From: Planctomycetota bacterium
GTDB taxonomy: Bacteria; Planctomycetota; Phycisphaerae; UBA1845; PWPN01
Reading direction: 5' to 3'
Length of the DNA stretch: 64,000 nt
Assembly: GCA_029550525.1 (NCBI GenBank)
Contig: JAKPHF010000046.1
Location: forward strand, 171,796-235,795
A program made the position numbers and the translations under genes. Below the pieces are notes generated by a model. That model searched no databases, was not told the DNA's origin, and was given only the letters and a program-made list of their open reading frames with translations. This document shows positions 17,035-46,630 of this stretch, piece after piece; the first letter of the stretch is position 1; the number at the start of each line of letters is the position of its first letter.

Positions 17035-17069
17035 GCTTACAGCTTAGAGCTTATAGCTTACAGCTCATG
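17035..17069. repeat. AGCT-core heptamer array x5 abutting a stop codon
   Basis: Plus strand GCTTACA GCTTAGA GCTTATA GCTTACA GCTCATG. In the sense of the minus-strand gene 17065..18102 it reads TGA-GCTGTA AGCTATA AGCTCTA AGCTGTA AGC, with the stop codon inside the first unit. Confidence 0.85.
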
Positions 17070-18102
17070 ATGACGACGTCGCCGCCTGACGCATGGTGAT
17101 CTCCGCTTCGGTCTTGAAGCCCGCGCGGATACGCAGAATGTCGATGCGCTCGGATACTTCTTGCGCCATCCGGCTGTTCGGGAATTCCTGGCGAATCTGC
17201 AGCCCGATCTCCAAGGCGTCGCGCCATCGATTCTCCGACACTGCCAACCCGAACTGCACGCCCAGATTCAGCAACCGCGCCTTGAAGACGCCACGAGCGG
17301 AGTCCTGCAGGTTCTGAGCTTCCTCGCGCGTGAGGTACTGGTCCAGCTCCGTCAGGATCTCGATACCCTGGTCGATCTCGTTCCGCGCCACCGCCTCGTT
17401 CCAGCGAGCCAGCAACGCCTGCTTCTGCGCCTCGCGGCGGCGTTCCAGTTCCTTGGGCAGGTTCAACACGCGCTCGTGCCGGGGAAACAGCTTGACGAGC
17501 CGGTCGATTTCCGCCCGGGCTCGCTCCCAGCGATGCTCCGACAGGATCTTTTCGATATGCGTCAGAGCCTGGTTGATCTTCTCTTCGATGGTCATCTCCC
17601 GGGCCGCGGCGAGCTCCTGGCGAAGCGTCTCGGCCTCCTGCTTGTAGCCGAACCGCCGCTCCATTTCGTTCACCAGGTAGGTAGCCGCTTCCCAATCGCC
17701 GCTGTACATCTCCTCGCGGATGGCCTGCCGCAGCGCCTCCCGCTCGCTCTCGCGGTGCGTGATGGACCGCACGGCATCGGAGATCTGGCTGTTGTCGGCC
17801 ACGATCTTGACCAGCGGTGCCATTCGCTGCACCACTTCCTGCATCTCCAGCAGCACGTTGTGAATGCGGTTGACGTTGGCCTCGGTCTTGGCCGTCACGA
17901 CCATGATCGCATTGAGAATCAGCGACAGCGAGACCAGGAGCAAACCCGCGCCCAGAGCCACCACTCCGCCGAGCCGAGCCTCCGGCATGAACAGAAGGAT
18001 CAGGCCGGCGATCAGCAACACACCACCCAGAACGCACGCGGCGACGGCGGTGAACAGCGTCGTCTGAAGCGGGCCACGATTGCGCAGAGGCATGTCAGAC
18101 AC
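17065..18102 (-). CDS. Membrane-anchored helical-repeat protein, function unknown
   Basis: GTG start 8 nt after GAGGAG. Two N-terminal TM helices followed by about 250 aa of charged alpha-helical, TPR-like sequence. Confidence 0.65.
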   Translation of the reverse strand: MSDMPLRNRGPLQTTLFTAVAACVLGGVLLIAGLILLFMPEARLGGVVALGAGLLLVSLSLILNAIMVVTAKTEANVNRIHNVLLEMQEVVQRMAPLVKIVADNSQISDAVRSITHRESEREALRQAIREEMYSGDWEAATYLVNEMERRFGYKQEAETLRQELAAAREMTIEEKINQALTHIEKILSEHRWERARAEIDRLVKLFPRHERVLNLPKELERRREAQKQALLARWNEAVARNEIDQGIEILTELDQYLTREEAQNLQDSARGVFKARLLNLGVQFGLAVSENRWRDALEIGLQIRQEFPNSRMAQEVSERIDILRIRAGFKTEAEITMRQAATSSS

Positions 18103-18237
18103 GGGAAAGTCTCCTCACAGGCCGGCGCCCGGTTCGATCAAGCCAATGGTATGTCGGAACAAAATGACCGTCAATGCGAACGTTATCGCCCCCGGACGGC
18201 GAGGCCAGGCCAACCTCATGCGGACCAACCGCTTGCA

Positions 18238-18456
18238 TCAAGCCGCCTGGCTCATCGTATCGGGTGCGTCGGCCGGGTTGCTCGCCTCATCCGCCTCCCC
18301 TTCTTGCTGGGCGCGAGCGGCTTCCATTTCAGCCAGCGCCTTTTCCTGCTCGGCCAACCGCAGCAGGAGGTGGCGATGACGCCGGTTCTTCTCCTTGGCG
18401 ACAATCCGTAGGAAGACGCCCGCACCGAGCAGGCCGATCGCCAAATGGGTCAGCAC
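18238..18456 (-). CDS. Small membrane protein (one TM helix plus a charged coiled tail)
   Basis: GTG start about 10 nt after AGGAG. LAIGLLGAGVFLRIV, then KEKNRRHRH...EQEKALAEMEAARAQQE. Lies just upstream of 17065..18102 on the same strand. Confidence 0.5.
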   Translation of the reverse strand: MLTHLAIGLLGAGVFLRIVAKEKNRRHRHLLLRLAEQEKALAEMEAARAQQEGEADEASNPADAPDTMSQAA

Positions 18457-18633
18457 GTCTGAAAAGCTCCTGAGGCGAAACCGTCGCCGTCATTCCGCCC
18501 CGACCGAGCCGGGATCGGCGACGCGGACAGCACCCCACCTTTTCATCGGCTGCTCCACAGCGCGAATTCACTTGCATGGCCGATAACCCGGCCCGAAACA
18601 TTCGCCCGCCGTCTTCCCTGCCCGTCCCCACTC

Positions 18634-20013
18634 CTACTTCCGTGCCAGCACCGCCCAATAACCGCCGTCGTGCCAGTCGATCGCCGTATCGCCGGCGTCC
18701 GGCAGCGTCAAATAACTGTCAGCGAGCATCCAATCCGGATGAGCCTCGAGAAAACGCACGCAAACCTGCTGGTTTTCCTCGGGATCGATGCTGCACGTGC
18801 TGTACATGATGCGGGTCTGCGGGCCGGCCAGTCTCGCCGCCTGATCGAGCAGGCCCAACTGCACTTCCGCGATCTTGATCAGACCCCGCATGCTGAGCCG
18901 GTAGCGAATCTCCGGACGGCGGGCCAGCACGCCGGAGTTGCTGCACGGCGCGTCGACCAGAATCCAGTCCAGCCGACCCAATGCCCGTACGCGGTCCTCT
19001 AGCTCGTGCATGGGCACGACGTCAACGCTGCGGTAGCCGAGCCGCTGCACGACCTCAGCCAAGCCGTCGAGGCGAGCCGCGTCGATGTCGGTGGCCAGGA
19101 TGCGGCCGTCGTCGCCCATGGCCTCGACCATCTGCGTCGTCTTGGTACCCAGCCCGGCACACAGATCGAGGACGGTTTGGCCGGGCTGTAACTCCATCCG
19201 CCGTACCGGTCGCGTGGCGGTAGGATCCTGGGGCTGAAACAGCCCGGCTCTCAGCAGCGGCGAGCCCGGGAGGGCGGCCGTCTGCTGGACCAGGATCGCT
19301 TCGCCTCCCGCCGCCAACTGCGGCTGGAAGCCCGCCTCGGCAAGCTGCTCGACCATCGTCGCCGCGTCCGTCCGCAGCCGGTTGGGCCGCAGAAAGATCG
19401 GCGGCCGCAGCATGCCCGCCCGGCAGATCGCCCCGGTCCGCTCCGAGCCGAAGGCATCCATCCAGCGGGACACGAGCCAGGCCGGATGCGACGTCGTCTG
19501 CGATAGGTGGTCGATGGGCTGCCGGAGCGGGTCCGCAAAGACGGGATCCGCCAGCTGGCAGCAGGTCGTCCGATCCACCAGGATCGCGCGAACGGGGTCC
19601 GCCTGCGACACGGGCACCCGCCGGTGCTCGATTCGCCGCTCCAACTGCCGCAGAACCGCGTTGACGAACTGGCCGGCCCCCCGGCCCCCCTCGGCCTTGG
19701 CCTGGTTGACCGCTTCGTTGACGGCCGCGAACGCGGGGACCGAGTCGAGCCAGATGAGCTGGTAGGCCCCCAGCATGAGGGTCTGCTGCAGGCGGCGGGA
19801 AACGTGCTTCCATCGGTGATTTGTGAAATGCGCCAGCACCGTCGAGAGCGTCAGCCGGTGCCGGACGACGCCCGTCACCAGCTCCATGGCCAGCGATCGG
19901 TCCCGGTCGGCCAGGCCGTACCGCCCCACCACCGCCTCGATGGCGTGGCGAGCCGTCTGCCTGCCCTCGCGCAAATCTCCCAGCGCTCGTAATGCCGCCG
20001 TCCGTGCGTCCAT
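18634..20013 (-). CDS. rsmB: 16S rRNA (cytosine967-C5)-methyltransferase RsmB/Sun
   Basis: N-terminal NusB-like domain. MTase motifs [32 protein letters not shown] and YSTCSI. Start placed at the internal ATG 20013; the longest ORF reaches 20109. Confidence 0.85.
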
Positions 20014-20197
20014 GCGTCCGTTCCCTCGATCCGCGGCGGAAAGCCCCCCGAGCCCCCGGATCGCTCCGGGCGCACGGGTATTGTTGCGTTCCGCGCCCGC
20101 TACGATCATAATAGATCTCTCTGTAATGTGCCGAAAGCGGTCACCCGGGCTCGCGAGGGATGCGAGCCGGAACCGTTGGTCTTTTAAGGACTCGTCT

Positions 20198-31250: not shown

Positions 31251-32330
31251 CTATCGCGGCACGGAAGTCTTGAATTGCCGGGCCGCCTTCTCCACGTCGT
31301 CGGCCGAGATCACCGCCGAACACACGCACACGCAGCGGCAGCCGGCCTGATACAGTATACCGGCGTTTTCGGGAACAATCCCGCCGATGGGAACAATCGG
31401 AATCCCGGTCCGCGCGGTAGCGTAAGCCGCCAAATCGGGGCCGGGCACATGGTCCTGCGGTTTGGTGGATGATTGAAACATCGGGCCGACCGCGATGTAG
31501 TCCGGCCCCGAGGCCACCGCGGCGTCGAACTGCTCGCGGTTGTGCGTGCTGACGCCGATGAGCCGATCCGGCCCCAGAATCCGCCGGGCATCGACCATGG
31601 GCATATCGGTCTGGCCCAAGTGGACGCCGTCGGCATCGGCGAGACGGGCGATGTCCGGCCGATCGTTCACGATGAACAGCACATCGTGCTCGCGGCACAG
31701 CTCGCGCAGCCGGCGGGCGCGACTCAGCAACTCGCCGTCGTCGAGGTTCTTTTCGCGCAACTGCAGACAGTCCGCGCCGCCGGCAATAGCCGCGCGCGCC
31801 ACGGACAGCCAATCGTCCCGACACAGCGACTCGGTCACCAGAACGTAAAGTTGCACACGGGCAAAGCGGGCCGATCGATCGCCTCGCATCATCATCCGCT
31901 GCTCGAGATCGTACGCCCGGTATCGCAACGCCTCGATCTCGGCCGCCACGGCAGCGTCGAGCGTCTTGCCGTATTCCTCCAGCGTTCGCAGCGCTTCGGG
32001 CAACCGCTTCAAGGCCGCGACGCAGACGTCGCGAGCATCGGCGCGATGCTGCTCGGACTCCGTGACAATGTGCGTGCCCACGTCCCCCGGCGTGTCGCGG
32101 GCGGCCAGGAGCGCGTCAGCCAGTCGCTCCGCGGATGCATCACCCCAGGCCGCGTGGACGCTTCCCGCCAACCGGCGGATACATCCGGCCAGATCGTGCC
32201 GCAGGTGCTTGACTCGCTCACATCCGACCGGATCGTCCTGGACAAACCGCGCGTAGTCTTCGATGACTCGCAACGCCTCGCGAGCCCGGTTGAAATTGGC
32301 GTCCAGTATTCGAGCGACCGGTTCGTTCAT
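31251..32330 (-). CDS. thiE: Thiamine-phosphate synthase (ThiE) with an N-terminal extension of about 140 aa
   Basis: The C-terminal ~210 aa match ThiE (LYVLVTE, LQLREK, FIVNDRPDIA, DGVHLGQTD, IGVSTH, DYIAVGPMF.S.TK, IPIVPIGGI). The N-terminal domain (ARILDANFNRAREALRVIEDYARF) has unknown function. Confidence 0.85.
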   Translation of the reverse strand: MNEPVARILDANFNRAREALRVIEDYARFVQDDPVGCERVKHLRHDLAGCIRRLAGSVHAAWGDASAERLADALLAARDTPGDVGTHIVTESEQHRADARDVCVAALKRLPEALRTLEEYGKTLDAAVAAEIEALRYRAYDLEQRMMMRGDRSARFARVQLYVLVTESLCRDDWLSVARAAIAGGADCLQLREKNLDDGELLSRARRLRELCREHDVLFIVNDRPDIARLADADGVHLGQTDMPMVDARRILGPDRLIGVSTHNREQFDAAVASGPDYIAVGPMFQSSTKPQDHVPGPDLAAYATARTGIPIVPIGGIVPENAGILYQAGCRCVCVCSAVISADDVEKAARQFKTSVPR

Positions 32331-32331
32331 T

Positions 32332-32359
32332 GATGAGCTATGAGCTGTGAGCTATGAGC
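32332..32359. repeat. AGCT-core heptamer array x4, ending 1 nt upstream of the thiE start codon
   Basis: GATGAGC TATGAGC TGTGAGC TATGAGC on the plus strand. It occupies the position where a thiE SD would be expected. Confidence 0.85.
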
Positions 32360-32461
32360 CAGACATTGGACGCACATCCGAGAATTTATGGCGTGCGCAA
32401 TTAAAACGAACTCGATCGTACACGAAACACGCACCATCCGGCGAGTGGCTGAGATCCGATG

Positions 32462-32517
32462 GCTGACAGCTGAGAGCTCATAGCTGATAGCTGATAGCTG
32501 ATAGCTGACAGCTTCAA
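32462..32517. repeat. AGCT-core heptamer array x8 overlapping the ribBA stop codon
   Basis: GCTGACA GCTGAGA GCTCATA GCTGATA GCTGATA GCTGATA GCTGACA GCTTCAA. The ribBA stop (32514-32516) lies in the last unit. GCTCATAGCT is complementary to AGCTATGAGC in the 32332 array. Confidence 0.9.
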
Positions 32518-33743
32518 TCCAACAAATGCCCCATCTTCTCCTTCTTGGTCTGGAGATAGCGCCGATTCACCTCGTTCGGCGGAATTTTGATGGGCACCTG
32601 TTTGACGATTTCGATCCCGTACAACGAGAGTCGATGCACCTTCTTGGGATTGTTGGTCAGGATCTCCAGCCGTCGCAGCCCCAGGTCGCGGAGAATCTGC
32701 GCCCCGATGCCGTAATCCCGCTTGTCGGGCGGAAAACCGAGCTTCTCGTTCGCCTCCACCGTGTCCAGCCCCTGGTCCTGAAGCAGGTAAGCCTTGATCT
32801 TGTTGTGCAGCCCGATGCCGCGCCCTTCCTGGCGGAGGTAGACGATGGCCCCCTTGCCCGCTTGCTGAACGAGTCGCATGGCCGTGTGCAACTGGCTGCC
32901 GCAGTCGCAACGCATCGAACCGAACAGATCGCCCGTAATGCACTCCGAGTGCACCCGCACGAGGACCGGCTCTTCGTGCACGATGGGCTGGCCGTTGGGC
33001 TGTCGCTCGCCCACACCGCCGCAACACAGCGCCAGGTGCAGGTCGGGCTCAACCAGCGACTTGTACGCGTGCATGGTGAACGGGCCGAACTCCGTCGGCA
33101 GCTGAACCGTCCCCACCCGCTCCACGAGCGACTCGCGCTGCTCGCGGTACTCGATGAGCGAGGCGATCGTGCACATCTTGATCTGGTGCTTGGCGCAGAA
33201 CCGTTCCAGATCGGGCACGCGAGCCATCGTGCCGTCCTCATTCATGATCTCGATGAGCGCCCCCACCGGCCGCAGCCCGGCCAGCCGCAGCAGGTCCACC
33301 GTCCCTTCGGTCTGCCCCGCCCGCACGAGCACGCCTCCATCGCGGGCCATCAGCGGGTTCACATGGCCCGGACGCAGGAAGTCGTCCGGCTGGGCCATGG
33401 GATCGGCCAGGCGGCGAATGGTGGTCGCCCGATCGAACGCGGACACGCCCGTGGTCACGCCGAACTGCGGCGCGGCGTCGATGGTTACCGTGAACGCCGT
33501 CCCCAGTTGAGCCGTGTTCTCGTGCGTCTGCGAGTGCAACTCGAGGTGCCGGCATATCTGCCGCGGCATGGCCACGCACAGAACGCCCCGCGCGACGGTC
33601 AGCATGAAGTTGACCATCTCCGGCGTGATGAATTCGGCGGCGCAGATCAGGTCGCCCTCGTTCTCCCGGCGTTCGTCGTCGACGAGGACGACGAACCGGC
33701 CGGCGCGAAGTTCGGACAGCGCTTCGTCAATGGTGCAGAACAC
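32514..33743 (-). CDS. ribBA: Bifunctional 3,4-dihydroxy-2-butanone-4-phosphate synthase / GTP cyclohydrolase II
   Basis: RibB motifs (VVLVDDERRENEGDLI, RAGQTEG) and RibA motifs (VRVHSECITGD, CDCGSQL, GRGIGL). Start placed at the GTG 33743, 9 nt after AGGA. The longest ORF extends to a GTG at 33797. Confidence 0.9.
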   Translation of the reverse strand: MFCTIDEALSELRAGRFVVLVDDERRENEGDLICAAEFITPEMVNFMLTVARGVLCVAMPRQICRHLELHSQTHENTAQLGTAFTVTIDAAPQFGVTTGVSAFDRATTIRRLADPMAQPDDFLRPGHVNPLMARDGGVLVRAGQTEGTVDLLRLAGLRPVGALIEIMNEDGTMARVPDLERFCAKHQIKMCTIASLIEYREQRESLVERVGTVQLPTEFGPFTMHAYKSLVEPDLHLALCCGGVGERQPNGQPIVHEEPVLVRVHSECITGDLFGSMRCDCGSQLHTAMRLVQQAGKGAIVYLRQEGRGIGLHNKIKAYLLQDQGLDTVEANEKLGFPPDKRDYGIGAQILRDLGLRRLEILTNNPKKVHRLSLYGIEIVKQVPIKIPPNEVNRRYLQTKKEKMGHLLD

Positions 33744-34090
33744 TCTATGAATCCTCGCTTGTGGCGGGCTCTCCCGCGGGCCGATCGGCAGCCCCACAGT
33801 GGATTACGCTAGGGTCCAATCCGGGCGTGCTGAGGTCTGCAAGACCCGCGGTCGGGCCGAGGCGGAGAGAGCACACGTGGGCATTGTAACCCATTCCGCC
33901 CCGCGCCGGAACTGCCCGGGCCTCCGGCCACCGAAAGACAGACCGCCGAGTGGCGGTCGCCGGGTGACAGGCCAGCGGGTGGCGGACGCGCCCCGCCATC
34001 GCTACCATGAAAATTGAGGGGCCCTCCGCCGCTGTCGCGGTCACCGGGGCGGCTGGCTCCAACTCTGTCTCCCGAAAGGAATTTACGACC

Positions 34091-35395
34091 ATGCACCTGC
34101 CGAGGTTGGCGCTGCGGCCGGCGTTTTGTCTTCTTTCTTGCGCGGCATTCCTGGTTTTGGTCATTGGGTGTCCTCCCGCCGACGATTCCGACGGCGACGG
34201 CGTGCCCAACTCCATCGACAACTGCCCGCTGGCCCCCAATCCCGACCAGGCTGACGTGAACGGCAACGGACTGGGCGATGCATGCGATCCCGAGACGCTG
34301 GACAGCGACGCGGACGGCATCGTGGACGCCGCCGACAACTGCCCGGCCGCTTTCAACCCCAACCAGGTGGATTCGGACAATGACGGGTTGGGCGACGCTT
34401 GCGACCCCGACCTGATCGATTCCGACGGCGACGGATACGTGGACGCCCTGGACAACTGCCCCAGTGTGGCCAATCCGACGCAGGCCGACATCGACAACGA
34501 CGGCATCGGCGACGCCTGCGATTCAGACTTCGTGGACACCGACAACGACGGCATCATGGACTCGCTCGACAACTGCCCCACGGTCGCCAATCCCAACCAG
34601 GCTGACGCCGACAACGATGGCGTGGGCGACGCGTGCGATCCCGACCTGATCGACACCGACGGCGACGGCGTCGTCGACGCCCTCGACAACTGCCCCACCG
34701 TGGCCAATCCCACACAAACCGACGCTGACGGCGACGATGTCGGTAACGCCTGCGACAATTGCCCCACCGTCTTTAACCCGACGCAAGCCGACGCCGACAA
34801 CGACGGCATCGGCGACGCCTGCGACGCCGTCACGGGAACCGACACGGACGGCGACGGAGTCCCTGACGCCACGGACAACTGTCCCAATGTCGCCAACGCG
34901 AATCAGCTGGACACGGACGGCGATGGCCGCGGCAACGCCTGCGACAATTGCCCTACCGTCGCCAACGCCAACCAGCAGGATACCGACGGCGACGGTGTTG
35001 GAGACGTTTGCGACAACTGTCCCACCGTCGCCAACCCCAATCAGGCGGATACCAACCAGAACGGCATCGGCGATGCCTGCGAAAGCGGAACGGTGCTGGT
35101 CAACCTGCCCAACGCTCCCAGTGCACCGAACGCAACTTTTACGCCCAGCGCCGTCGGGCGGCTGATCACCATCATCGTCAGGACCACACCTCCGGTCGGC
35201 CAAGTGCAAATTGTGGTCACGAATTTCCAGAACGGCCCTGAACAGACGGTCGCGCAGCTGTTGACGCCGACCTCTCCCGGCTTCTCGACGCTGTCGTTCA
35301 GAAGCACGGCCGCCATCGTGCACAATGTCAGGACCAACGAGTTGGTCGGCGGCTTCCCGCCGAGCCAATATCAACTGATCGTCACCGAGCAGTAA
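34091..35395 (+). CDS. Lipoprotein made of ~13 thrombospondin type-3 (Ca-binding) repeats plus a C-terminal beta-rich domain
   Basis: ATG at 34091 follows GAAAGGAA. Signal with lipobox AFLVLVIGC. Tandem units D.DGDG..D..DNCP.V.NP.Q.D.D.DG.GD.CD. Confidence 0.85.
34181..35080 (+). repeat. Intragenic tandem repeats encoding TSP3 units (~69-72 nt period)
   Basis: Recurrent GACAACTGCCC...AACCC..CAGGC.GAC...GACGGC.TCGGCGACGC.TGCGA blocks throughout the gene. Confidence 0.8.
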
Positions 35396-35403: not shown

Positions 35404-35428
35404 GGGGGGCGGGCGTCTCGCCCGCCTC
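35404..35428. repeat. 25-nt GC hairpin element, copy 1 (REP-like, 9 nt after the stop of the TSP3 lipoprotein gene)
   Basis: GGGGGGCGGGCGTCTCGCCCGCCTC, with stem GGCGGGCG/CGCCCGCC and loop TCT. Identical to 61302-61326. Confidence 0.85.
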
Positions 35429-35536: not shown

Positions 35537-35557
35537 GCTCAAAGCTCATAGCTACAA
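35537..35557. repeat. AGCT-core heptamer array x3 next to a minus-strand terminator
   Basis: GCTCAAA GCTCATA GCTACAA, 5 nt from the 35563-35598 hairpin. Confidence 0.7.
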
Positions 35558-38408: not shown

Positions 38409-38443
38409 GCTCAGAGCTCATAGCTCACAGCTGATAGCTGCCG
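38409..38443. repeat. AGCT-core heptamer array x5, 1 nt from a stop codon
   Basis: GCTCAGA GCTCATA GCTCACA GCTGATA GCTGCCG. The stop of gene 38445..39479 lies at 38445-38447. Confidence 0.85.
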
Positions 38444-38444
38444 A

Positions 38445-39479
38445 CTAACACGACCTCCGCACGCCGTTGCCGCCGACTCGCTCCGAATGGGCCAGCTTGA
38501 ACCGCACGCGCAGCAGATCGCCGGGCGACATGAGCACCTCTTCGTACACGCGGGTGATGATCTCCTCATTGATCCGTTCGAAATCGGTTCCGCGTGGCAG
38601 GATGAGCAGACCCGCGACGTCCACCGCGCCGGGGCTGATGAGGAATTCGTCCGGACCCAAGCCGTAGAAGCTCGGCCGATGAGCCGCCCGCGGGTAGAGC
38701 CAGACGGTCCAGCAGTTGTCGGCGTACCCGACGAACAGGTTGAGCATGGGCTCGGGCCGGGCCGGGCGAACCTCGGCGAGAACTTCCAGCACCCACTCGA
38801 GCGCGCTCAGCAGTTCGTCCCGAGACCGGCTCATGAGGAAGATCGCCGACCGGTGGCCGGGCCGGCTGACACCGATGCGCACCGGCTCGCAGTGCACCCA
38901 ATCGATCCAGCCCGGGCTCTCGGCGGTCCGACCACAGCAGATGTTGCGAACCAGCTCTTTTTCGTGCGGTAACAACGCCACCGGCGCGGCCTGCAGGTGC
39001 AGATGGTCGGGCGCCGATGCCCCACTGCTCGGGCCGTTGTAGAAAATGGTGTAGTGGCCGTCCAGATCGCGAGCCAGGTCCAGCATCACCGGAGCGGCGA
39101 CCTGCACCGATTGCGGCTGGTGCGTCATCGAACTGATGGTGAAATGGGGCTCGAAGATCGGAGCCGGGTTGCACAGGATCAGCCAGTCCTTCCGGTAGAC
39201 GATCCCACACTGCGACTTGGGCAGATTGTCTTTGCAGAGAAAGCAAGGCCGGGCCGCCAGTGAGGCCGCGTCCACCTTGGCCGCGCTGCTGGCCTCGCGC
39301 CCGGGATTGTATTGGACGACGACCGTCGAGAGCCCCAGGCGGAAGCTGCGGGTGCGCACTTTACGGAGCCCGTCGAGCGCCTCCCGCAATCGGGGCCAGT
39401 CTTCCACCTGCTGACGCCAGAGCGCCGGCACGAGATTAGCCAGCGAGCCGGGGCCGATAAAGCTGCGATCGAAAGCCAT
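38445..39479 (-). CDS. HIT/GalT-superfamily nucleotidyltransferase- or phosphorylase-like protein (DUF4922-like)
   Basis: Internal ATG at 39479. Histidine motif APDHLHLQA (HxHxQ), preceded by CFLC and ILCNPAPIFEPHFTI. This resembles Ap4A-phosphorylase/GDP-hexose-phosphorylase-type folds. The family assignment is from memory, not a search. Confidence 0.5.
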   Translation of the reverse strand: MAFDRSFIGPGSLANLVPALWRQQVEDWPRLREALDGLRKVRTRSFRLGLSTVVVQYNPGREASSAAKVDAASLAARPCFLCKDNLPKSQCGIVYRKDWLILCNPAPIFEPHFTISSMTHQPQSVQVAAPVMLDLARDLDGHYTIFYNGPSSGASAPDHLHLQAAPVALLPHEKELVRNICCGRTAESPGWIDWVHCEPVRIGVSRPGHRSAIFLMSRSRDELLSALEWVLEVLAEVRPARPEPMLNLFVGYADNCWTVWLYPRAAHRPSFYGLGPDEFLISPGAVDVAGLLILPRGTDFERINEEIITRVYEEVLMSPGDLLRVRFKLAHSERVGGNGVRRSC

Positions 39480-39753
39480 AGGAATCGAATACTCACTCAA
39501 GACGAGCGGCCCGATTGTGCGATCGGCCGACCCCGTTTCGTGCCGCCATGGCATGCCCCGTTCGTCCCCCGCCCGCTCCGCAGCCAAGGGCCGCCGGCCG
39601 AGCCACCCGGGGACGACAACACAAGCGCCTATCATACGACGGGGCCCCCCGGTCGCCAAACCGGCGCCGACCGCCCCCAATTTCCGGGGATGGCAGATGT
39701 GTGACCAGCCGGCGCATGGCGCAACCAACCCTCGGCCGCCAGCCGACGCCGGC

Positions 39754-39809
39754 AGCTGTGCGAGCTGAAAGCCGATAGCCGACAGCTGACAGCTGATTGC
39801 CGATAGCTT
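39754..39809. repeat. AGCT/AGCC-core heptamer array x8, 2 nt from a stop codon
   Basis: CAGCTGT GCGAGCT GAAAGCC GATAGCC GACAGCT GACAGCT GATTGCC GATAGCT. The stop of the HMA gene lies at 39812-39814. Confidence 0.85.
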
Positions 39810-39811
39810 TC

Positions 39812-40168
39812 TTAACGCATCTCGAGCTTGGTCAGCACGTAACCCGTTCGCTCGATGGCCTGTACGAGTTGTTCGCGGGTGGGCGGCTTGCCGGAGGCCA
39901 GTGTCACCGTCGCCTGTTCATGCTCGTAGTCCACGTCGATCTGCTCGACGCCTCGAACCGCCTGCAACTCTTTCTTGATCGCCTGCACGCACAACGGGCA
40001 ACTGAGGCCCTTCACCCAGATGACGGCCGAGCGCGGTTGCGGACTGGCCGGCGCCGACTCGAACGTCCCGGCCGGCTGCACCATCCGTTCGGGCTCACCC
40101 TGGGGCCGATTACATCCGACGAGGCTCAGCGAGCAGAGCACGACTGTCGCACACATCCACTTCGCCAT
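39812..40168 (-). CDS. Heavy-metal-associated (HMA) domain lipoprotein
   Basis: ATG at 40168 follows AGGAGAAG. Lipobox LSLVGC. HMA-like VKGLSCPLCVQAIKKEL...VTLASG....L..AIERTGY. Confidence 0.7.
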   Translation of the reverse strand: MAKWMCATVVLCSLSLVGCNRPQGEPERMVQPAGTFESAPASPQPRSAVIWVKGLSCPLCVQAIKKELQAVRGVEQIDVDYEHEQATVTLASGKPPTREQLVQAIERTGYVLTKLEMR

Positions 40169-40323
40169 ACCGCTTCTCCTTTCCGCATTCAGAATTGAAC
40201 GCACCACTCAAGCTTAGGCCTGCGCGGTTCGGAGCAGCAGCAACAGGAAAAAGCCATCAGGAAGAATGGCGCGAATGACGCTTGTGCGTCGCACGCTCAC
40301 CCGCTGAACCTGCCAAATGACAC

Positions 40324-40647: not shown

Positions 40648-40658
40648 GGGTGCGCCCT

Positions 40659-40686
40659 TAGCTATGAGCTATAGGAAGCTCTAAGT
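40659..40686. repeat. Short degenerate AGCT-core heptamer array (2-3 units)
   Basis: TTAGCTATG AGCTATA GGAAGCT CTAAG, located between the CMD pseudogene start and the tRNA-Ala flank. Confidence 0.5.
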
Positions 40687-40861: not shown

Positions 40862-40934
<73 letters not shown>

Positions 40935-41634: not shown

Positions 41635-42110
41635 TGCGGTACCTCGATGATCTCAGCGGTCAGCGTGTCGGTGTCGAGAACCGCCACCGTGCATCGTCCG
41701 GTCAGCCAGCCGCAACATTCCCCCGGATTCAGGAACAGCCGGCCGTCCCGCGTCTCGTTCACCACCTCATGCGTGTGGCCGGTCACCACGGCGTCCGCCC
41801 GGGCGATCTCGCTCGGCGGACACCAGTCCACAAAATGGTGCAGGAGGATGCGCCGCCCGCCCAATTCGACCCACATAGGCCCGTCCTGGATCTGCGGAAG
41901 AACCGACTTGAGGCCCTTACGCTCGCCGTCATTGTTCCCGTACGTGATGTACAACGGCCCCGTCCAGGCGAGCAGCCGTTTGGCGGCGAACGGTGCCACC
42001 ACGTCCCCCGGATGCAGCACAGCCTGCACGCCGCGGTCGCGGAGAATCTGTAGCCCCCGATCGAGCGTCGGAAGCCGGTCGTGCGTATCAGAGATCACGC
42101 CGATCAGCAT
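41631..42110 (-). CDS. YfcE/MJ0936-family metallophosphoesterase
   Basis: Internal ATG at 42110 gives MLIGVISDTHD. Also GDVV, GNND and GHTH metallophosphatase motifs. Confidence 0.8.
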   Translation of the reverse strand: MLIGVISDTHDRLPTLDRGLQILRDRGVQAVLHPGDVVAPFAAKRLLAWTGPLYITYGNNDGERKGLKSVLPQIQDGPMWVELGGRRILLHHFVDWCPPSEIARADAVVTGHTHEVVNETRDGRLFLNPGECCGWLTGRCTVAVLDTDTLTAEIIEVPQ

Positions 42111-42214
42111 GCCGATCTTATACCGGCCCCGCGGGCCGCCGACAAGAACGGCACCGCACCGGCAGCGGCTCGTTGAGAGCCCTTCTGCGGTCAATTACAA
42201 TCCCCGGCACGAGA

Positions 42215-45200
42215 ATGACCCCGGCACTCTCACCGCCATTGGCAGCCGCTGCCGCCGCGCACCGGCGGCGCTGGGCCATTCGGGCCGGAGCCGCCCTGCT
42301 GTTGACGTTCGCACTGGGCTACCTGGCGCTGCCCCTGTGGCTTCCCACCGAATACATCCGGCTGCAGTTGCAATCGCAACTGTCGCTCGATCTCGGCACG
42401 CCCGTGCAGATCGATCGGCTGCGGGCGGGCTGGCTGGAGGGCGTGGTCATCGAGGGACTGACCGTCGTGGACAACACGAGCCGCGACGGTGAAGCCTTTG
42501 CCCGCATTGGGCGCATCCGCTGCGACTTCTCGCCCTTCACGCTCTTGGCCGGTAAACGGGTTCGCGTGCTGGAGTTCTTCGATCCGCAGATCTGGATTCA
42601 TATCGACGAGACGGGCGCCCTGCGGCTGCCCCAGTTCAACGACCAGCAGAGCCCACGTCTGCCGAGCTTGAACTACGCCGTGAACGGGCTGACCTGTCAC
42701 GTCCTCACGCCGGGCGTCAGCCAAAGCTTCCGCATCGATCGGCTCGACCTGCAACTCGACCCACCCAGCGGCTTGCTCCACCTGGCCAGCGTCACGCGCG
42801 TTCAGCGACCCCGGTCTGACACTGACGAGCCTGCCGCCGGACGGCTCGACTTTGACGCCAACATCCGCATCCCACGGCTCAAGGCGACCGAGCGGCTGAA
42901 CGGCACGTTCGAAGCCGAGTGGACCGACTTGGCCCTGAACGACCTGCCAGTGCCGCTCATCTCGCACGTGCCGGTCGAGCAGGTGGACGGAATCACCAGC
43001 GGCCGTGTGATCATTCGGACCCACCCGGACCTGGGCATCGATTACGCGGTCACGATCGCCATGGACGGCGTGCGGATCATGCGGCCCGACCTCAACCGTC
43101 CGGCTCAAGTGCCCGACGCCGAGCTGTCCTGCCGCGGACGGTGGAATCCGAATAGTGGGTTGGTCGTCATGGACGAACTGACCTGCGAGACGCCGTCGAT
43201 CCGACTGGAAGCGGGCAGCCCGGGCGAGCCGGCCTGCCGTCTGGAAGAAAACGACGAGCATCCGGCCGAACTCCATCTGCGCGGCACGATCAAAGACTGG
43301 CACGGCTTGCGCCAGGAAATTCCCGAAGTCGATCACTTCGCCCGTTTGGCCGGTGTGGAGATTGAGGGCAGCGCGCAATTCACGCTCACCGCCATCCGGG
43401 GGTTGCGCGAGGATTTCCTGGCCGTGACGCTCGACGCGAACGATTCTGACTGCACAATCCGCGGCGGTGGCACGGAAGTCGTTCGCGCCGGCGAGGGCGT
43501 CGCCAAGCATTTGGAGTTGGAGATTCACCGCGAACGAACCACCGGCCGAATCCGCCAGCCCGGGTTCTCGTTGACGCTGGGTGATACCACACTGTCGGCC
43601 AGCGGCGAGCTTGTGTTGCCTGCCGGTTACGGTGATCCAACCGGGGCCGAGGACGCGACCCTCGCCACCGATCGACTGGCCGAGATCCTGCCCACCTTGG
43701 CCGGCCAGCTGCACGTGCGATGCAACGACGCGGGGAAGCTGCGGCAGCTCCTGCCCGTGCTGGCCACGCTCCGCGAGCTGGATGAACTATCGGGCCCGAT
43801 GGAGTTCAGCGCGACGCTCGAACCACGCGAAACCTGTACGCGTCTGCATGTCTCAGCCAGCCTGGCTTCCGAATCGGCCGCCCGCTACGGCGATCGGTTT
43901 TACAAGCGTCGAGGCCGCCCGCTAAACCTGCGTGCCGTCGCAGAAATCCCCTTCACCGCCCGCGGCCGCATCGATCCGTTGAATCTCCAACTGCGACATG
44001 GGACAGGCATGCTGGAACTCGCGTCGCGCAACGGCAGCCTCGACTACCAGTTCGATCTGCGCGAGACACTAACCGGGTTCGCCCTGGTCGCTGCGGGCGG
44101 CCGCTGGCAAGCCGATCTCCGCGTGACAGCGATCGAGGACCTGCTCGATCTGATGCCGACAGCCGCAAGCGCTTTGAAAATCGGCGGCCTGAATTTCCTC
44201 GCCGGTGGTATCCGCGCCGATCTGCGCACTGAGTTTTCCTATCGCCCAGGTGACGCCGTCATCCGCAGCAACGCGCACGTCATCGCGGACGGCATCGCAC
44301 TCGACTTGGATCGCAGGTTCACCAAGCGCGCGGGCGAACGAATGAGCATCGATCTAGCCCACAGCGTGCGTCATGCGTCACAGCAGTTCGAGACGGCGTG
44401 GGATGCGACGCTGTCGACGTCCGCGGGCAAGCTCAGCGCTTCATGGACCACATGCGAGGCCGATCCTTCAGAGCCGGTCAGCCGCTTCGAAATGCTGGCC
44501 GCTCGGGCCGACATTTATCAACTGGCCGACTGTCTACCCGCCATCCCCGACGTGGCAGAGCGGCTCGGACTCCGCGGCGCCGGCAAGCTGACCGTTGAGT
44601 TGCACCGGTTAGCCTTGGGCGAATGGACAACGTCCACCGCCCGTTTCGACGCCACGCAGGCGGACCTGGCCGACATACGGCGGATCGGCTGGCGCAAACC
44701 GCCGGGTGTGCCGGTGCAGGGCGAAGTGGCTTGGACGAGCGTGCCTGAGACCACGGGTTCCGGTCGTCGGACGTACCACATCACGAAAGGAACTGGTCGA
44801 TTGGCCGGCGCCACCATCGACACGGTTGAGGGAAGCATCACGCTAAATCCCGACGCTCTGCGAGCGTTCGATCTTTCCCACAATCTCGGCACTATCGAGC
44901 TAACCGGCAGCATCGACTTCGACCAATCGTTCGACGCGTTGCACCCACGCCTTGGTGAGTATGTGCGAGCCCATGAACTGGCGGGCCGGCTGGACTGGCG
45001 ACTGGAGACGAGCATCGCCTCCGATTCGATCTCGCTGGGCGGTGCGTGCGATGCGTCCGGACTGCAGTTCAAAACCGCATGGAACGATCGCAGCCCATGG
45101 TTCATCGAAAAGCCGGCGGATTATCCGTTGGCCGCCTCGTGCGTCGTTTCGTTGAGACCTCCGGCGAACGGTCACCCGCTCTCGATCACGCTGCACGATG

Positions 45201-46588
45201 TCGCCGTGTCCGCTGCGGGCAACACCATCTCCGCCCGGGGCGAGCTGCCATTGAGCCTCAACGATGGCCAGGCTGCCGGCCGGACGGCCCTGCAAGTTGC
45301 CGCCGACCTGCCGCGTCTGGAGGAGTTGCGAAAGCTCGTGCCGGCCGCCCCCGTCGAGACGCTGTCGGGCCGTACGCAGGTGGAGTTCGCGCTGGCGAGC
45401 GACGGACGCTCCGTGGAAATCGACGACGGGCACATCGAATTCGATGATGTTCGGGTTGGCTCGGCAGCACGGCCGCTCCAACTGACCGGATCGGCACAGC
45501 TCGACGGGACCCGCGGGCTCAACCTCGAGCGCTTGCAATGGAGCTGGGGACGATCGGCGGGAACGTTCTCCGGCCTGTTCGCCTCACAGGCCGGGCAGTA
45601 CGACGTGCTCCTGGGCATCGGCGGTGACGAACTGTACATCGAGGATCTGCTGGACTGTGTCGATGAGTTCATGGCCGGCTTCAAGACGCCGGAGCAGCAG
45701 GCTTCGCCATCGCCTGCAAAGCCCGGCCAGGATCCCGTCCAACTCGTCATGGACCTGCTTCGCCGAACCAAGGCGAACGTCACTGCCCACGTAAAGACCG
45801 CTGTAACGCCGCTGCCGCTGGGCATGAGAGCGACCACCGACGCGGGCTGGCAGGAGTTGACCATCGACCGTGGTCGCATCGAGTTGCAGTTCGGCTGCCT
45901 GGTGGACGGAGGCTGCGTGGACGGCCGCGTCACCGCCGACCTCACCACCGACGATCCGCAGTATCGCCTGACGTACACCGCCGATCGAATCGCCCCCGGC
46001 AGCCTCGTCGATGCTTACCTGCGGCGAACCTTCCCCGGCATGACCGCGACCGGCCCGCTGACGCTCATCGACGAGTCAATCCAAAAGCTCAGGCCTGCCC
46101 CGGGCGAACCCAACTACGAGGTGGGCAAGGGCGAACTGATCATCGACGGCGGCGTCGTCTCGGGCCGGGCTGCCCCCCTGTGGATGGCTCGCATCTTCCC
46201 CAACCTGAACCTGGCCAGCTTCGAGTTCTCGCGTATGCACAGTTGGTTCGACAAGTCGGTTGACGGGCGCGTTCAGCACCAGATGATCTATCACGGGGCT
46301 TACTACAACGTGTACATGATCGGCTGGAGCAACCCGGAGGGCTACTTCGACTACGAGGTCGGCATCGACTTCCTCGCCGGCCTGGAGAGCGAGTACTGGG
46401 CCAACACCGGTCAGGGGCGGGTACCCCTATTCAGCAAGACCGGCCAAGTCCGCCCTGACGGCTCGCTCGCAGACGAAACCGTCACGTTCGTCTCGTTCCG
46501 TCGCGTCCTCGAAACGCTCTTCGTCCGAAACAATCCCGTCGTCACCGCCTATCACGCCGTCCGGAAGCGGGCGATGGCGAATGAATAG
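42215..46588 (+). CDS. Giant (~1457 aa) membrane-anchored AsmA/TamB-like envelope protein. The functional label is tentative
   Basis: Internal ATG at 42215. N-terminal anchor WAIRAGAALLLTFALGYLALPLW followed by AsmA-like N-terminal sequence (IRLQLQSQLSLDLGTPVQIDRLRAGWLEGVVIEGLTV) and more than 1300 aa of beta-rich sequence. Confidence 0.7.
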   Translation: MTPALSPPLAAAAAAHRRRWAIRAGAALLLTFALGYLALPLWLPTEYIRLQLQSQLSLDLGTPVQIDRLRAGWLEGVVIEGLTVVDNTSRDGEAFARIGRIRCDFSPFTLLAGKRVRVLEFFDPQIWIHIDETGALRLPQFNDQQSPRLPSLNYAVNGLTCHVLTPGVSQSFRIDRLDLQLDPPSGLLHLASVTRVQRPRSDTDEPAAGRLDFDANIRIPRLKATERLNGTFEAEWTDLALNDLPVPLISHVPVEQVDGITSGRVIIRTHPDLGIDYAVTIAMDGVRIMRPDLNRPAQVPDAELSCRGRWNPNSGLVVMDELTCETPSIRLEAGSPGEPACRLEENDEHPAELHLRGTIKDWHGLRQEIPEVDHFARLAGVEIEGSAQFTLTAIRGLREDFLAVTLDANDSDCTIRGGGTEVVRAGEGVAKHLELEIHRERTTGRIRQPGFSLTLGDTTLSASGELVLPAGYGDPTGAEDATLATDRLAEILPTLAGQLHVRCNDAGKLRQLLPVLATLRELDELSGPMEFSATLEPRETCTRLHVSASLASESAARYGDRFYKRRGRPLNLRAVAEIPFTARGRIDPLNLQLRHGTGMLELASRNGSLDYQFDLRETLTGFALVAAGGRWQADLRVTAIEDLLDLMPTAASALKIGGLNFLAGGIRADLRTEFSYRPGDAVIRSNAHVIADGIALDLDRRFTKRAGERMSIDLAHSVRHASQQFETAWDATLSTSAGKLSASWTTCEADPSEPVSRFEMLAARADIYQLADCLPAIPDVAERLGLRGAGKLTVELHRLALGEWTTSTARFDATQADLADIRRIGWRKPPGVPVQGEVAWTSVPETTGSGRRTYHITKGTGRLAGATIDTVEGSITLNPDALRAFDLSHNLGTIELTGSIDFDQSFDALHPRLGEYVRAHELAGRLDWRLETSIASDSISLGGACDASGLQFKTAWNDRSPWFIEKPADYPLAASCVVSLRPPANGHPLSITLHDVAVSAAGNTISARGELPLSLNDGQAAGRTALQVAADLPRLEELRKLVPAAPVETLSGRTQVEFALASDGRSVEIDDGHIEFDDVRVGSAARPLQLTGSAQLDGTRGLNLERLQWSWGRSAGTFSGLFASQAGQYDVLLGIGGDELYIEDLLDCVDEFMAGFKTPEQQASPSPAKPGQDPVQLVMDLLRRTKANVTAHVKTAVTPLPLGMRATTDAGWQELTIDRGRIELQFGCLVDGGCVDGRVTADLTTDDPQYRLTYTADRIAPGSLVDAYLRRTFPGMTATGPLTLIDESIQKLRPAPGEPNYEVGKGELIIDGGVVSGRAAPLWMARIFPNLNLASFEFSRMHSWFDKSVDGRVQHQMIYHGAYYNVYMIGWSNPEGYFDYEVGIDFLAGLESEYWANTGQGRVPLFSKTGQVRPDGSLADETVTFVSFRRVLETLFVRNNPVVTAYHAVRKRAMANE

Positions 46589-46630
46589 CTGTCAGCTGTG
46601 AGCTATGAGCTGTGAGCTGTGAGCTATCAG
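46587..46630. repeat. AGCT-core heptamer array x6 overlapping the stop codon of the AsmA-like gene
   Basis: AGCTGTC AGCTGTG AGCTATG AGCTGTG AGCTGTG AGCTATC AG. The TAG stop (46586-46588) overlaps the first unit. TGA triplets at 46599, 46606, 46613 and 46620 cover all three frames. Confidence 0.9.

Follow-up and report, generated by a model that had tools for sequence, protein, structure and literature searches.

The STRR sequences of cyanobacteria, as Mazel and colleagues are said to have described them in 1990, are tandem heptanucleotides dispersed in non-coding DNA whose variability allows strains to be fingerprinted. In enterobacteria, RAYT transposases mobilise the REP/BIME elements, a single palindrome of 20-40 nt present in scattered copies. 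Heptameric repeats have been characterised as GGGAATC, or (GGGANTN)n, in Xanthomonas and as GGGGA(C/T)T in Nostoc, where arrays hold 2-26 units and about 90% are intergenic (Rehm et al. 2015, PLoS One, PMC4692102). TAACTGA direct repeats occur in marine Beggiatoaceae, cyanobacteria and Bacteroidetes (MacGregor 2015, Front Microbiol, PMC4679880). They end about 1 nt before starts, with a minority class "toward stop codon" and one Flexibacter array in reverse orientation directly behind a stop, and they have been proposed to spread horizontally and to act as a translational regulator (PMC4679880). The position right after a stop codon is also that of the ribosome termination structure (RTS), for which folding energy is the defining property (Chemla et al. 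2020, Nat Commun, PMC7518266).

The 64,000-nt window (the whole stretch of planctomycete DNA analysed here, probably of Phycisphaerae) contains tandem heptamers with an AGCT core. AGCT pairs spaced by 7 nt occur 22 times and pairs at any other spacing at most 4 times, and AGCTN3AGCTN3AGCT has 14 matches against 0.00 expected, with no three-unit match in any of 100 dinucleotide-preserving shuffles of the window. TRF run on the arrays gives a period of 7 and 4.4-8 copies. All eight AGCT arrays are intergenic, between called genes, and five of the eight lie behind a stop codon; these five had been located in the initial annotation, and each is present where it was placed. Their start 0-2 nt from the stop, as annotated, agrees with the sequence once degenerate end units are counted, while the distance from the stop to the first AGCT ranges from -2 to +5 nt. 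The array at 17035..17069 (minus strand) follows the gene at 17065-18102 at a distance of -1; the stop TGA at 17065-17067 is itself T6-G7-A1 of the first unit, and in gene sense the array reads TGA-GCTGTA AGCTATA AGCTCTA AGCTGTA AGCC. Behind ribBA (32458..32517, minus strand; stop TGA 32514-32516, distance 0) there are eight AGCT-N-T-C/G units. The array of a DUF4922 gene (38409..38443, minus strand; stop TAG 38445-38447, distance +5) reads TAG TCGGC AGCTATC AGCTGTG AGCTATG AGCTCTG AGCC, and that of an HMA-domain gene (39754..39809, minus strand; stop TAA 39812-39814, distance +3) consists of degenerate AGCT/GGCT-N-T-C units whose sense strand is free of stops. The last, behind a gene of 1531 aa (46587..46630, plus strand; stop TAG 46586-46588, distance -2), has six AGCT-N-T-G/C units, the stop overlapping the first AGCT. 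Pfam matches support three of the five terminating genes (RibBA, DUF4922 and HMA); a Pfam search with gene 17065-18102 returned no match, and this gene and gene 41993-46588 are the best GC3-supported ORFs.

In the reading direction of the gene that ends there, all five arrays have the form AGCT-N-T-N, as had been claimed. Taken alone this agreement is weak (two-sided p about 0.06), so support for the polarity has to come from other genomes. The window also holds three AGCT arrays beyond these five. A leader array on the minus strand (32333..32359), which in gene sense reads GGCTCAT AGCTCAC AGCTCAT AGCTCAT, ends 2 nt before the ATG of thiD2/thiE (32330-32328), and a two-unit array on the same strand (40660..40673; AGCTCAT AGCTAAG) lies 12 nt upstream of the ATG at 40648 of a putative ORF identified by eye. 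Since these two read AGCT-N-A-N upstream of starts, one polarity relative to the upstream gene, while correct for the five, describes only half of the pattern. The third is a short orphan (35537..35556, no strand assigned; GGCTCAA AGCTCAT AGCTACA on the plus strand) in a 700-nt spacer, where it adjoins a minus-strand hairpin with a T-run. Heptamer arrays with other cores are present as well. A CAACTGA-type array (61346..61377, plus strand) terminates 4 nt upstream of the ATG at 61381 and, in the rotation AACTGAC, has the form core4-N-A-N, which makes it the same heptamer class with another core. Inverted pairs are formed by TCGA-A-T-G units at 52399-52441 and TCGT-C-A-T units at 52481-52501 (plus strand, flanked by a stop at 52375 and a start at 52520), and by AGGAGAC-type arrays at 5407..5492 (minus strand, between two minus-strand genes).

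Outside the window, two scans with strand-symmetric patterns were made, one of a genome set and one of an independent metagenome set, and genes in the scanned loci were called with a crude GC3/longest-ORF caller. Both scans bore out the annotated polarity as an excess of N-T-N behind stops: within 20 nt of a stop, N-T-N and N-A-N arrays numbered 22 and 4 in the genome set and 36 and 15 in the metagenome set (58:19 overall). Behind stops without a near start the counts were 52 and 14 (p 2.8e-6), and 6:5 where a co-directional start lay within 60 nt downstream of the stop-adjacent array; the polarity has a strength of about 4:1 and is not absolute. Pfam matches were obtained for 11 of the 15 exceptions, NusG and L10 among them, and the arrays behind these exception genes resemble leader arrays, the spacers being short. 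Of 147 arrays, 104 have their closer ORF on the 5′ side of the N-T-N strand; median distances are 20-25 nt on that side and 92-110 nt on the other. Start-adjacent arrays conformed to the same arrangement by 13:4 in the genome set (a hand count that includes one in the window) and by 17:6 in the metagenome set, counts that carry the bias of the called start positions, since the N-A-N strand has stops in all frames. At other loci N-A-N arrays end 3-8 nt before starts, and the genes that follow them are ones we take, from N-termini recognised by eye, to be tdk, rpsI, leuA and iscS. Position 6 is A or T at a purity of at least 75% in 81 of 147 arrays (genome-scan loci and window), and because the scan pattern fixes AGCT it is the only position informative for a unit consensus. 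Arrays inside ORFs made up 7 of 77 and 6 of 146 in the two scans, and arrays sometimes extend into the last codons of an ORF. These data show a class-wide rule, that the core4-N-T-N strand reads away from the nearest ORF. Assuming transcription, the rule puts AGCUNUN in mRNA directly behind stops and the complementary, A-rich AGCURAN directly before starts, and the five arrays of the initial annotation are the behind-the-stop half of it.

On all six points compared, the arrays behave as intergenic heptameric simple repeats of the type described by Rehm et al. (2015). Shared features are tandem 7-nt units with T at position 6 and conservation of positions 1-4 and 6; a nearer ORF on the 5′ side, whatever its orientation (28 versus 160 nt for the Rehm repeats, next to the medians given above); the coding strand behind or overlapping stops and the non-coding strand before starts; many convergent inverted pairs; and variability between close relatives. 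The units themselves differ, for the Rehm repeats have a G-tract core able to form a G-quadruplex or i-motif and the present arrays a palindromic AGCT core, which lacks a G-tract and so makes either structure impossible; a G-quadruplex repeat, for which four tracts of at least three G are required, was rejected on the single G of the core. Stop triplets occur on one strand of AGCT units and are absent from GGGAATC units, and the hosts of AGCT-core arrays are Planctomycetota, Acidobacteriota and many other phyla, unlike the Xanthomonas and Nostoc of the Rehm repeats. As to TAACTGA, its rotation AACTGAT is one base apart from AGCTGAT, and at one locus (L001) a single array switches from AGCTGAN to AACTGAN units. 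The CAACTGA array of the window, 4 nt before its start, resembles TAACTGA in placement, and N-A-N arrays, like TAACTGA, end a few nt before starts without an obvious SD. The five after-stop arrays correspond instead to the "toward stop codon" minority and the Flexibacter case: TAACTGA repeats lie mostly before starts, the AGCT arrays of the window mostly behind stops. The five do not have the TAACTGA unit, showing AGCT where it has AACT, nor its stop-rich forward orientation near a start, which is found at 32333-32359, 40660-40673 and 61346-61377. STRR have other unit sequences (e.g. CCCCAGT) and a cyanobacterial host. Like REP/BIME, the arrays recur in spacers behind genes, often as inverted pairs, with mRNA hairpins possible, but unlike them they are tandem 7-mers with unique spacers. 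A MITE or other dispersed mobile element was rejected, since neither spacers nor flanks recur elsewhere in the window or in the loci fetched.

Three stop-to-start spacers of the window contain paired arrays (ribBA-thiE, 52399..52501 and 5407..5492), and each is predicted to fold into a hairpin. The ribBA-thiE structure has a predicted energy of -70.7 kcal/mol (z -3.6), with 32458..32517 as 5′ arm and 32333..32359 as 3′ arm, so placed that the UGA stop pairs with the UCA immediately 5′ of the AUG. The 98-nt spacer between the arms (32360..32457, minus strand), the predicted loop region, is unique: no second copy was found in the window or the fetched loci, and it matched no Rfam family. The pair at 52399..52501 gives a long predicted hairpin of -47.5 kcal/mol (z -3.35) and that at 5407..5492 one of -44.8 kcal/mol (z -2.87) with the stop codon within the stem; inverted pairs at other loci have comparable predicted folds. 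Adjacent arrays are almost always inverted relative to each other, and the order within pairs, N-T-N and then N-A-N, held by 12:0 in the genome scan and 21:6 in the metagenome scan. A complementary partner downstream was seen for about 12 of 27 stop-adjacent arrays; about half, including three of the five after-stop arrays of the window, have none, so hairpins cannot be the general mechanism. Unpaired arrays are found, for instance, between convergent genes. The predicted folds of single arrays are no more stable than those of shuffled sequence (z -0.14 to -2.65, versus -2.9 to -3.6 for paired spacers). The predicted stop-to-start hairpins occupy the place of an RTS, right after the stop, although RTS are not defined by repeats and unpaired AGCT arrays are predicted to be no more stable than shuffled sequence. 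The hairpins fold equally from either strand, so that no G-U signature marks an RNA. The two strands of one array also fold equally and neither pairs with the anti-SD, so no physical property was found that explains the preference for N-T-N behind stops.

Variation was followed in 10 strain contigs over three aligned spacers, where the only difference between strains is the number of units. The array behind ribBA has one unit fewer in one strain (L127), the HMA array has 2 or 4 AGCTGTC units depending on the strain, with an assembly gap inside it in another (L121), and the DUF4922 array at 38409 is identical in all 10. Such whole-unit differences fit replication slippage. Relatives at 81-92% RibBA identity have no arrays, arrays of other polarity or different heptamers; in one close relative (L132) the arrays behind the corresponding ribBA stop are N-A-N.

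On balance we think it somewhat more likely than not that the arrays are an AGCT-core family of intergenic heptanucleotide repeats, made by slippage and residing in untranslated regions of transcripts, where they often pair into stop-to-start hairpins. Array edges lie within a few nt of stop and start codons and not of promoters or terminators, from which we infer that they act on, or are selected through, the transcript and its translation. A rule blind to ORF orientation is also expected from a DNA-level or a purely mutational process, an observation that speaks against a transcript-level reading.

The most serious competitor, which we hold possible but would not expect to be correct, is that the arrays are a neutral by-product without function: heptamers, as the unit length most prone to polymerase slippage, would arise and grow in any unconstrained DNA, and their position and polarity would reflect tolerance, or polar growth halted where the constrained bases of an ORF begin. 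The strain differences in unit number and the relatives with no arrays, or with another polarity or sequence, are what this predicts, as are the intrusion of arrays on final ORF codons and the indifference of the rule to ORF orientation, which Rehm et al. (2015) also found; their study cites a slippage hypothesis for heptamers, and transcriptome analysis in Xanthomonas revealed no function (PMC4692102). Tolerance alone, however, does not predict a position 0-5 nt from the stop within a 150-250-nt spacer, and it gives no reason for a stop-free orientation beside the 3′ ends of ORFs. Nor was the gradient of unit homogeneity expected of polar growth seen (end units 0.71 vs 0.60 differences, p 0.08), and the core4-N-T-N template recurs with different cores in unrelated phyla.

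The initial annotation had offered RNA 3′ ends or processing as an alternative function. In such a reading the pyrimidine-rich AGCUNUN would mark the end or a cut of the transcript, for example by termination-factor loading, RNase E entry or a non-canonical terminator. The arrays do occupy the first untranslated RNA behind the stop, the N-T-N strand is 58% pyrimidine and 34% T, some arrays finish in AGCTTTTT, and in Xanthomonas, transcript starts or stops are more frequent at G4-capable repeats than at control repeats (Rehm 2015, PMC4692102). A classical terminator is nevertheless not favoured. A scan of the one spacer of ribBA-thiE (32300-32540) detected no terminator-like site, T-runs of at least 4 follow just 19 of 210 arrays (9%, vs 5% on the other strand), and single arrays, as noted, do not fold better than shuffles. 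An intrinsic (Rho-independent) terminator, a G+C-rich hairpin with a U-tract directly after it, was rejected, with no T-run behind any of the five window arrays. The strong T-run hairpin near 17035 is a separate one, about 20-50 nt farther downstream, which places that array inside the 3′ UTR, ahead of the hairpin. The same arrays also occur in cyanobacteria, which are not known to have Rho. With the mirror arrays before starts also left unexplained, a signal for the 3′ end seems to us unlikely.

Still less can be said for a DNA-level element, in which oriented protein-binding sites or cruciform pairs would mark or insulate ORF boundaries. It would account for a rule set by ORF position rather than direction and for the dyad symmetry of inverted pairs, whose two strands fold equally; TRF also gives a period of 21 bp for three arrays, and 21 bp is two helical turns. 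Edges that are nucleotide-exact at stop and start codons point to translation and not to DNA topology, however, no candidate protein is known, and with a spacing of 7 bp neighbouring sites would face different sides of the helix, so that we regard this explanation as quite improbable.

The arrays had further been suggested to form an all-frame translational barrier on at least one strand, halting ribosomes after read-through or frameshift or on the opposite strand. The arithmetic behind this is right: a stop triplet in a 7-nt unit recurs in all three frames, the TGA at 46599/46606/46613 and the four TAA of the 17035 array are correctly read and cover three frames, and three-frame stops are found on one strand of every one of the five. 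The bridging triplet T6-N7-A1 (TGA or TAA) nevertheless gives each unit a stop on exactly one strand, with selection or without: the written strand carries it when N7 is a purine and the complementary strand when N7 is a pyrimidine. In gene sense, all-frame stops are present in three of the five window arrays, with one array lacking stops and one having a single stop. On the N-T-N strand (the sense strand behind stops), 34 of 83 arrays have all-frame stops and 26 have none, compared with all-frame stops in 63 for the N-A-N strand. For ribosomes that leave the upstream gene such a barrier fails; it follows from motif arithmetic, is usually antisense and does not explain the geometry. Although off-frame stops are scarce at the 64% G+C of the window, a barrier as general cause is largely refuted and very improbable, since GGGAATC units are stop-free on both strands and hug stops with equal geometry (Rehm 2015, PMC4692102), and since a study of fail-safe additional stops reports no evidence for their selection in bacteria (PMC6764699).

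Under the preferred reading, that of slippage-made repeats in untranslated regions, arrays would gain and lose whole units by replication slippage and would act, or be filtered by selection, at the level of transcript and translation, transcription being assumed in this uncultured organism. Where both halves of the rule share a spacer, the long predicted hairpin would have its base close to or at the stop of the upstream gene on one side and the start of the downstream gene on the other. On reaching that stop, a terminating ribosome could then melt the 5′ arm, so that leader and start codon of the following gene become accessible, and the opened arm may provide translational coupling or gating; alternatively, the hairpin may protect or mark intercistronic RNA. 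The AGCT-core version is new, and it belongs to a class of repeats already described in Xanthomonas, cyanobacteria and Beggiatoa.

Five arrays of AGCT-core 7-nt repeats had been reported by the initial annotation, at 17035-17069, 32462-32517, 38409-38443, 39754-39809 and 46587-46630, and all five were present at these positions, Tandem Repeats Finder giving a period of 7 for each. The window (64% G+C) contains 211 AGCT sites, matching the expectation from base composition; 22 of the distances between consecutive sites are 7 nt, every other distance occurring at most four times, and three AGCTs at 7-nt spacing were matched 14 times, compared with none in 100 dinucleotide-preserving shuffles. 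Judged from RibBA homologues, the host is an uncultured member of the Planctomycetota, probably of the Phycisphaerae. The genes that end at the arrays include those for RibBA (32517-33797), a DUF4922 protein (38448-39728) and an HMA-domain protein (39815-40207), each on the minus strand and identified by Pfam. The other two are the best GC3-supported ORFs, at 17065-18102, where a Pfam search gave no match, and at 41993-46588, called from GC3. Pfam-supported neighbours encode ThiD2/ThiE, a SpoVG-like protein, an anti-sigma factor and a hybrid histidine kinase.

The distance from the stop codon to the first AGCT is -1, 0, +5, +3 and -2 nt in the five arrays. A single polarity relative to the upstream gene had been claimed, and behind stops this is correct, all five arrays reading AGCT-N-T-N in the sense of the terminating gene, but it is only half of the pattern, the other half being AGCT-N-A-N before starts. 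An additional array at 32333-32359, of AGCTCAT and AGCTCAC units (N-A-N), lies on the same transcript strand as the ribBA array, 98 nt away, and ends 2 nt before the thiD2/thiE ATG, a start shared by the public gene call and with a Pfam domain from residue 7. A second N-A-N array (40660-40673) lies 12 nt upstream of an ATG, and an orphan array was found at 35537-35556. Read as mRNA, a four-base core followed by N-T-N (core4-N-T-N) stands behind stops, and its complement, core4-N-A-N, ahead of starts. The sole Rfam or ARAGORN match in the window, a tRNA-Ala (GGC) at 40862-40934 on the minus strand, has the 40660-40673 array ∼190 nt downstream. Long plus-strand antisense ORFs opposite ribBA (32526-33812), the HMA gene (39797-40198) and the 17065 gene (17161-18411) open just past the arrays, right after the stop-rich N-A-N reading, and are probably the usual spurious ORFs of G+C-rich genes.

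Since five arrays of five are not significant by themselves, genomes were scanned more widely, one per species, with the pattern AGCTN3 x4, which is strand-symmetric and therefore leaves polarity unbiased. At least 120 loci were obtained, and the matches listed came from many phyla, about one third being Acidobacteriota. Genes in these loci were called crudely, by GC3 or longest ORF, and arrays were oriented to read N-T-N. Among the matches listed, a co-directional gene ended within 20 nt of the 5′ side of 22 N-T-N versus 4 N-A-N arrays. In a second test, for which the hypotheses were fixed first and an independent metagenome scan was made, again with a symmetric pattern, stop-adjacent arrays were N-T-N in 36 cases and N-A-N in 15. 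Eleven of these 15 exceptions have a Pfam match (including NusG, ribosomal protein L10, NadA, a DnaB-like helicase and AccA), and for several the spacer appears to be short and the array may be a leader for the gene that follows. Among the matches listed from both scans, the N-T-N:N-A-N ratio was 52:14 where no co-directional start lay within 60 nt (binomial p 2.8e-6) and 6:5 where one did. Polarity relative to the upstream gene is non-random beyond the window, and the initial observation is confirmed and generalises.

Array position follows the same orientation. Among the matches listed, the nearer ORF lay on the 5′ side of the N-T-N strand in 104 of 147 arrays, with a median ORF distance of 20-25 nt on that side versus 92-110 nt on the other. 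The stop codon repeatedly overlaps or abuts the first unit ('tag CT', 'taa GCT', 'tga GCT'), and N-A-N arrays end 3-8 nt ahead of the starts of genes that we take, from N-termini recognised by eye, to encode thymidine kinase, S9, LeuA and IscS. Start-side counts of 13:4 (genome scan, among the matches listed, plus the window; counted by hand) and 17:6 (metagenome scan) depend on biased start calls, and their support for polarity ahead of starts is suggestive only. Arrays no more than 250 nt apart were inverted with the N-T-N member first in 12:0 cases in the genome scan, among the matches listed, and 21:6 in the metagenome scan. In L149, a metagenome contig, one array, (AGCTGTC)4(AGCTGAC)1, fills the whole spacer of a convergent gene pair and is overlapped at its ends by both stop codons; it therefore has the N-T-N sense, for the most part, relative to one gene and the N-A-N sense relative to its partner. 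By coincidence, the junction of L025, another locus outside the window, looked identical to that at 46587; it was rejected as a match, its array preceding a start on the other strand.

Bacterial tandem heptanucleotides have been known since 1990. Rehm et al. (2015; PMC4692102) described (GGGANTN)n arrays in Xanthomonas and GGGGA(C/T)T arrays in Nostoc, conserved at unit positions 1-4 and 6, ∼90% intergenic, variable in length among close relatives and 'almost exclusively' nearer the ORF on their 5′ side (28 versus 160 nt), whichever its orientation. Coding-strand arrays lay within 50 bp of a stop or overlapped it, non-coding-strand arrays lay ahead of starts, convergent inverted pairs numbered 70-75 per genome, and a function was looked for and none found. 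The TAACTGA repeats of MacGregor (2015; PMC4679880) are mostly 'forward', ending ∼1 nt before start codons; a 'toward stop codon' class is a minority, and one Flexibacter array lies directly behind a stop in reverse orientation. The five window arrays are the behind-the-stop class of this repeat type, which has been described but is unexplained; their core and their hosts are new. In the part of the literature searched, neither AGCT-core heptamers nor any planctomycete or acidobacterial repeats of this type were described. The TAACTGA rotation AACTGAT differs from AGCTGAT by one base, and at L001, a locus outside the window, a single array switches from AGCTGAN to AACTGAN units. The window itself carries a CAACTGA-type array (61346-61377; units GGACAAC, GGGCAAC, TGACCAC, TGACAAC and TGACAGG), one base apart from the published repeat and with the same forward placement, ending 4 nt before the ATG at 61381.

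Other repeats were noted in the window. A G+C-rich hairpin, GGCGGGCG-TCTC-GCCCGCC, possibly a small repeated element resembling a terminator or a REP, is identical at 35408-35426 and 61306-61324, both times a few nt past a TAA stop and without a T-run; both strands together give four matches versus 0.38 expected. The plus-strand gene at 34007-35395 has internal repeats of 69, 117 and 234 nt at 34272-35082, encoding thrombospondin type 3-like Asp-rich repeats, and public gene calls split or shorten it in L126, L128 and L129, strain contigs of the same species.

Three spacers in the window contain inverted heptamer pairs, all between co-directional genes and with unit sequences that differ among the three: ribBA-thiE (32333-32359 and 32458-32517) and two further stop-to-start spacers (52399-52441 and 52481-52501; 5407-5444 and 5458-5492). 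Predicted folds reach -70.7 kcal/mol for 32333-32517 (z -3.6), -47.5 for 52399-52501 (z -3.35) and -44.8 for 5407-5492 (z -2.9), with the hairpin feet predicted at or near the upstream stop and the downstream start. In the ribBA-thiE prediction the helix continues into the two genes, with the UGA stop paired to the UCA just ahead of the AUG. Array pairs of other loci gave similar predicted folding, and for about 12 of 27 stop-adjacent arrays the 160 nt downstream contain a strongly complementary partner (z < -2). Single arrays folded no better than shuffles (z -0.14 to -2.65). The ribBA-thiE spacer gave neither an Rfam match (to a TPP riboswitch ahead of thiE, for example) nor a promoter in a consensus scan, and G-U asymmetry did not identify the RNA strand of paired hairpins.

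Taken together, these findings show that the five arrays form a new AGCT-core family of intergenic heptameric repeats obeying the polarity rule of the class. Because stop and start codons set array edges to the nucleotide, we infer that mRNA and translation are the level at which the rule is imposed. Where both halves share a spacer, they would form a stop-to-start hairpin, which the terminating ribosome may open, thereby coupling or gating translation of the next gene; alternatively, the hairpin might protect the intercistronic RNA. A closely related idea is the ribosome termination structure (Chemla et al. 2020; PMC7518266). This account leaves aside unpaired arrays, including three of the five, and the choice of the N-T-N strand over its complement as the one pointing away from the ORF.

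A serious rival to this account is neutral, namely that slippage-prone repeats are filtered or halted by selection at ORF edges. Among 10 same-species contigs from different samples, three aligned spacers were identical save for unit number: the ribBA array has one AGCTATC unit fewer in one strain, and AGCTGTC units number two or four in the HMA array. Length changes are of whole units, as replication slippage would give; a gradient of unit homogeneity expected of polar growth was not significant. Between species, the ribBA-thiE spacer differs in every relative compared (L131-L134; 81-92% RibBA identity). The array is absent from L131; L132 has two N-A-N arrays between ribBA and thiE (5768-5867); L133 has an extra gene within the spacer and, at 12568-12670, an array of 15 AGCTAAG units that runs from the thiE stop, which it overlaps, to 7 nt short of the next ATG; and L134 has, behind the ribBA stop (11345-11406), GTCCGTT/GTCAGTG units, the reverse of AACTGAC, which read core4-N-T-N. 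No conservation by descent was found at the ribBA-thiE spacer, relatives having no array, other polarities or other heptamers; the arrays are therefore gained and lost fast rather than inherited as sequence. In practice, arrays mark true ORF ends, vary between strains and break or confuse short-read assemblies. The public MAG assembly of L121, another strain contig, has a run of N exactly within the HMA array (∼3850-3950, corresponding to window 39754-39809).

A transcript 3′-end or processing signal has lower odds than the neutral reading. The 17035 array lies inside a 3′ UTR, since a separate strong hairpin with a T-run comes after it. This hairpin (16985-17025, GCCCCGGG...CCCGGGGC) stands between two convergent genes, with an A-run and a T-run on its flanks, and resembles an intrinsic terminator that acts in both directions. 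T-runs follow 9% of arrays, versus 5% on the other strand, and no terminator-like site was found in ribBA-thiE, the one spacer scanned; on these scans, intrinsic termination was rejected as a general reading. A DNA-level element likewise has lower odds than the neutral account. No second copy of the spacers occurs in the window or in the loci compared, and on that ground a reading of the array pairs as MITE terminal repeats or as ends of a dispersed element was rejected.

The stop triplets quoted for the arrays were correct on re-checking, and the arithmetic of an all-frame translational barrier is true: where N7 is a purine, T6-N7-A1 reads TGA or TAA on the written strand, and where it is a pyrimidine, the stop falls on the complement; three like units then fill three frames. 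This is built into the motif, and as a cause it was not supported. Only three of the five window arrays have all-frame stops on the sense strand, and one has no stop at all; among 83 arrays in the matches listed, the N-T-N strand had stops in every frame in 34 and no stop in 26, and the opposite strand had stops in every frame in 63. The GGGAATC unit, read directly, is stop-free on both strands and has the same geometry. On these counts and this unit, a sense-strand stop barrier was rejected as the cause.

Greater structure of N-T-N RNA would suit a site behind stops and harm one before starts; it was excluded by mean MFEs of -14.1 versus -14.7 kcal/mol (227 arrays, p 0.18). Shine-Dalgarno mimicry by the N-A-N strand was also excluded, neither array strand pairing with the anti-SD (mean duplex -1.1 versus 0.0 kcal/mol; 4 of 229 reach -6). 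Replication-strand bias was rejected because polarity flips from stop side to start side for genes on the same strand, and Rehm et al. (2015; PMC4692102) found no leading or lagging strand preference.

The main value of these results is a family under the same rule that is not G-quadruplex-forming, and the unification of before-start and behind-stop arrays. Since the AGCT family cannot form G-quadruplexes yet obeys the position and polarity rule of the G-rich family, the quadruplex is not the cause of the rule. The behind-stop rule and the published before-start rule of TAACTGA become two mirror halves of one geometry, which holds in Planctomycetota, Acidobacteriota, Bacteroidota, cyanobacteria and other groups, and paired arrays with predicted stop- and start-footed hairpins would provide a concrete, testable mechanism. 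Cores AGCT, AGTT/AACT, GGGA, GGGG, TCGA and GTCM, in at least six phyla, share one core4-N-T-N template pointing away from the nearest ORF as well as stop-start inverted pairs, and it is conceivable, if improbable, that a single conserved machinery reads or writes the arrays. Candidates would be an OB-fold RNA-binding protein of S1 or Csp type, with 7 nt per domain, or the terminating ribosome itself. If so, heptamer arrays would be widespread punctuation marks at ORF ends, coupling or insulating the translation of adjacent genes in lineages where Shine-Dalgarno sites and classical terminators are scarce.
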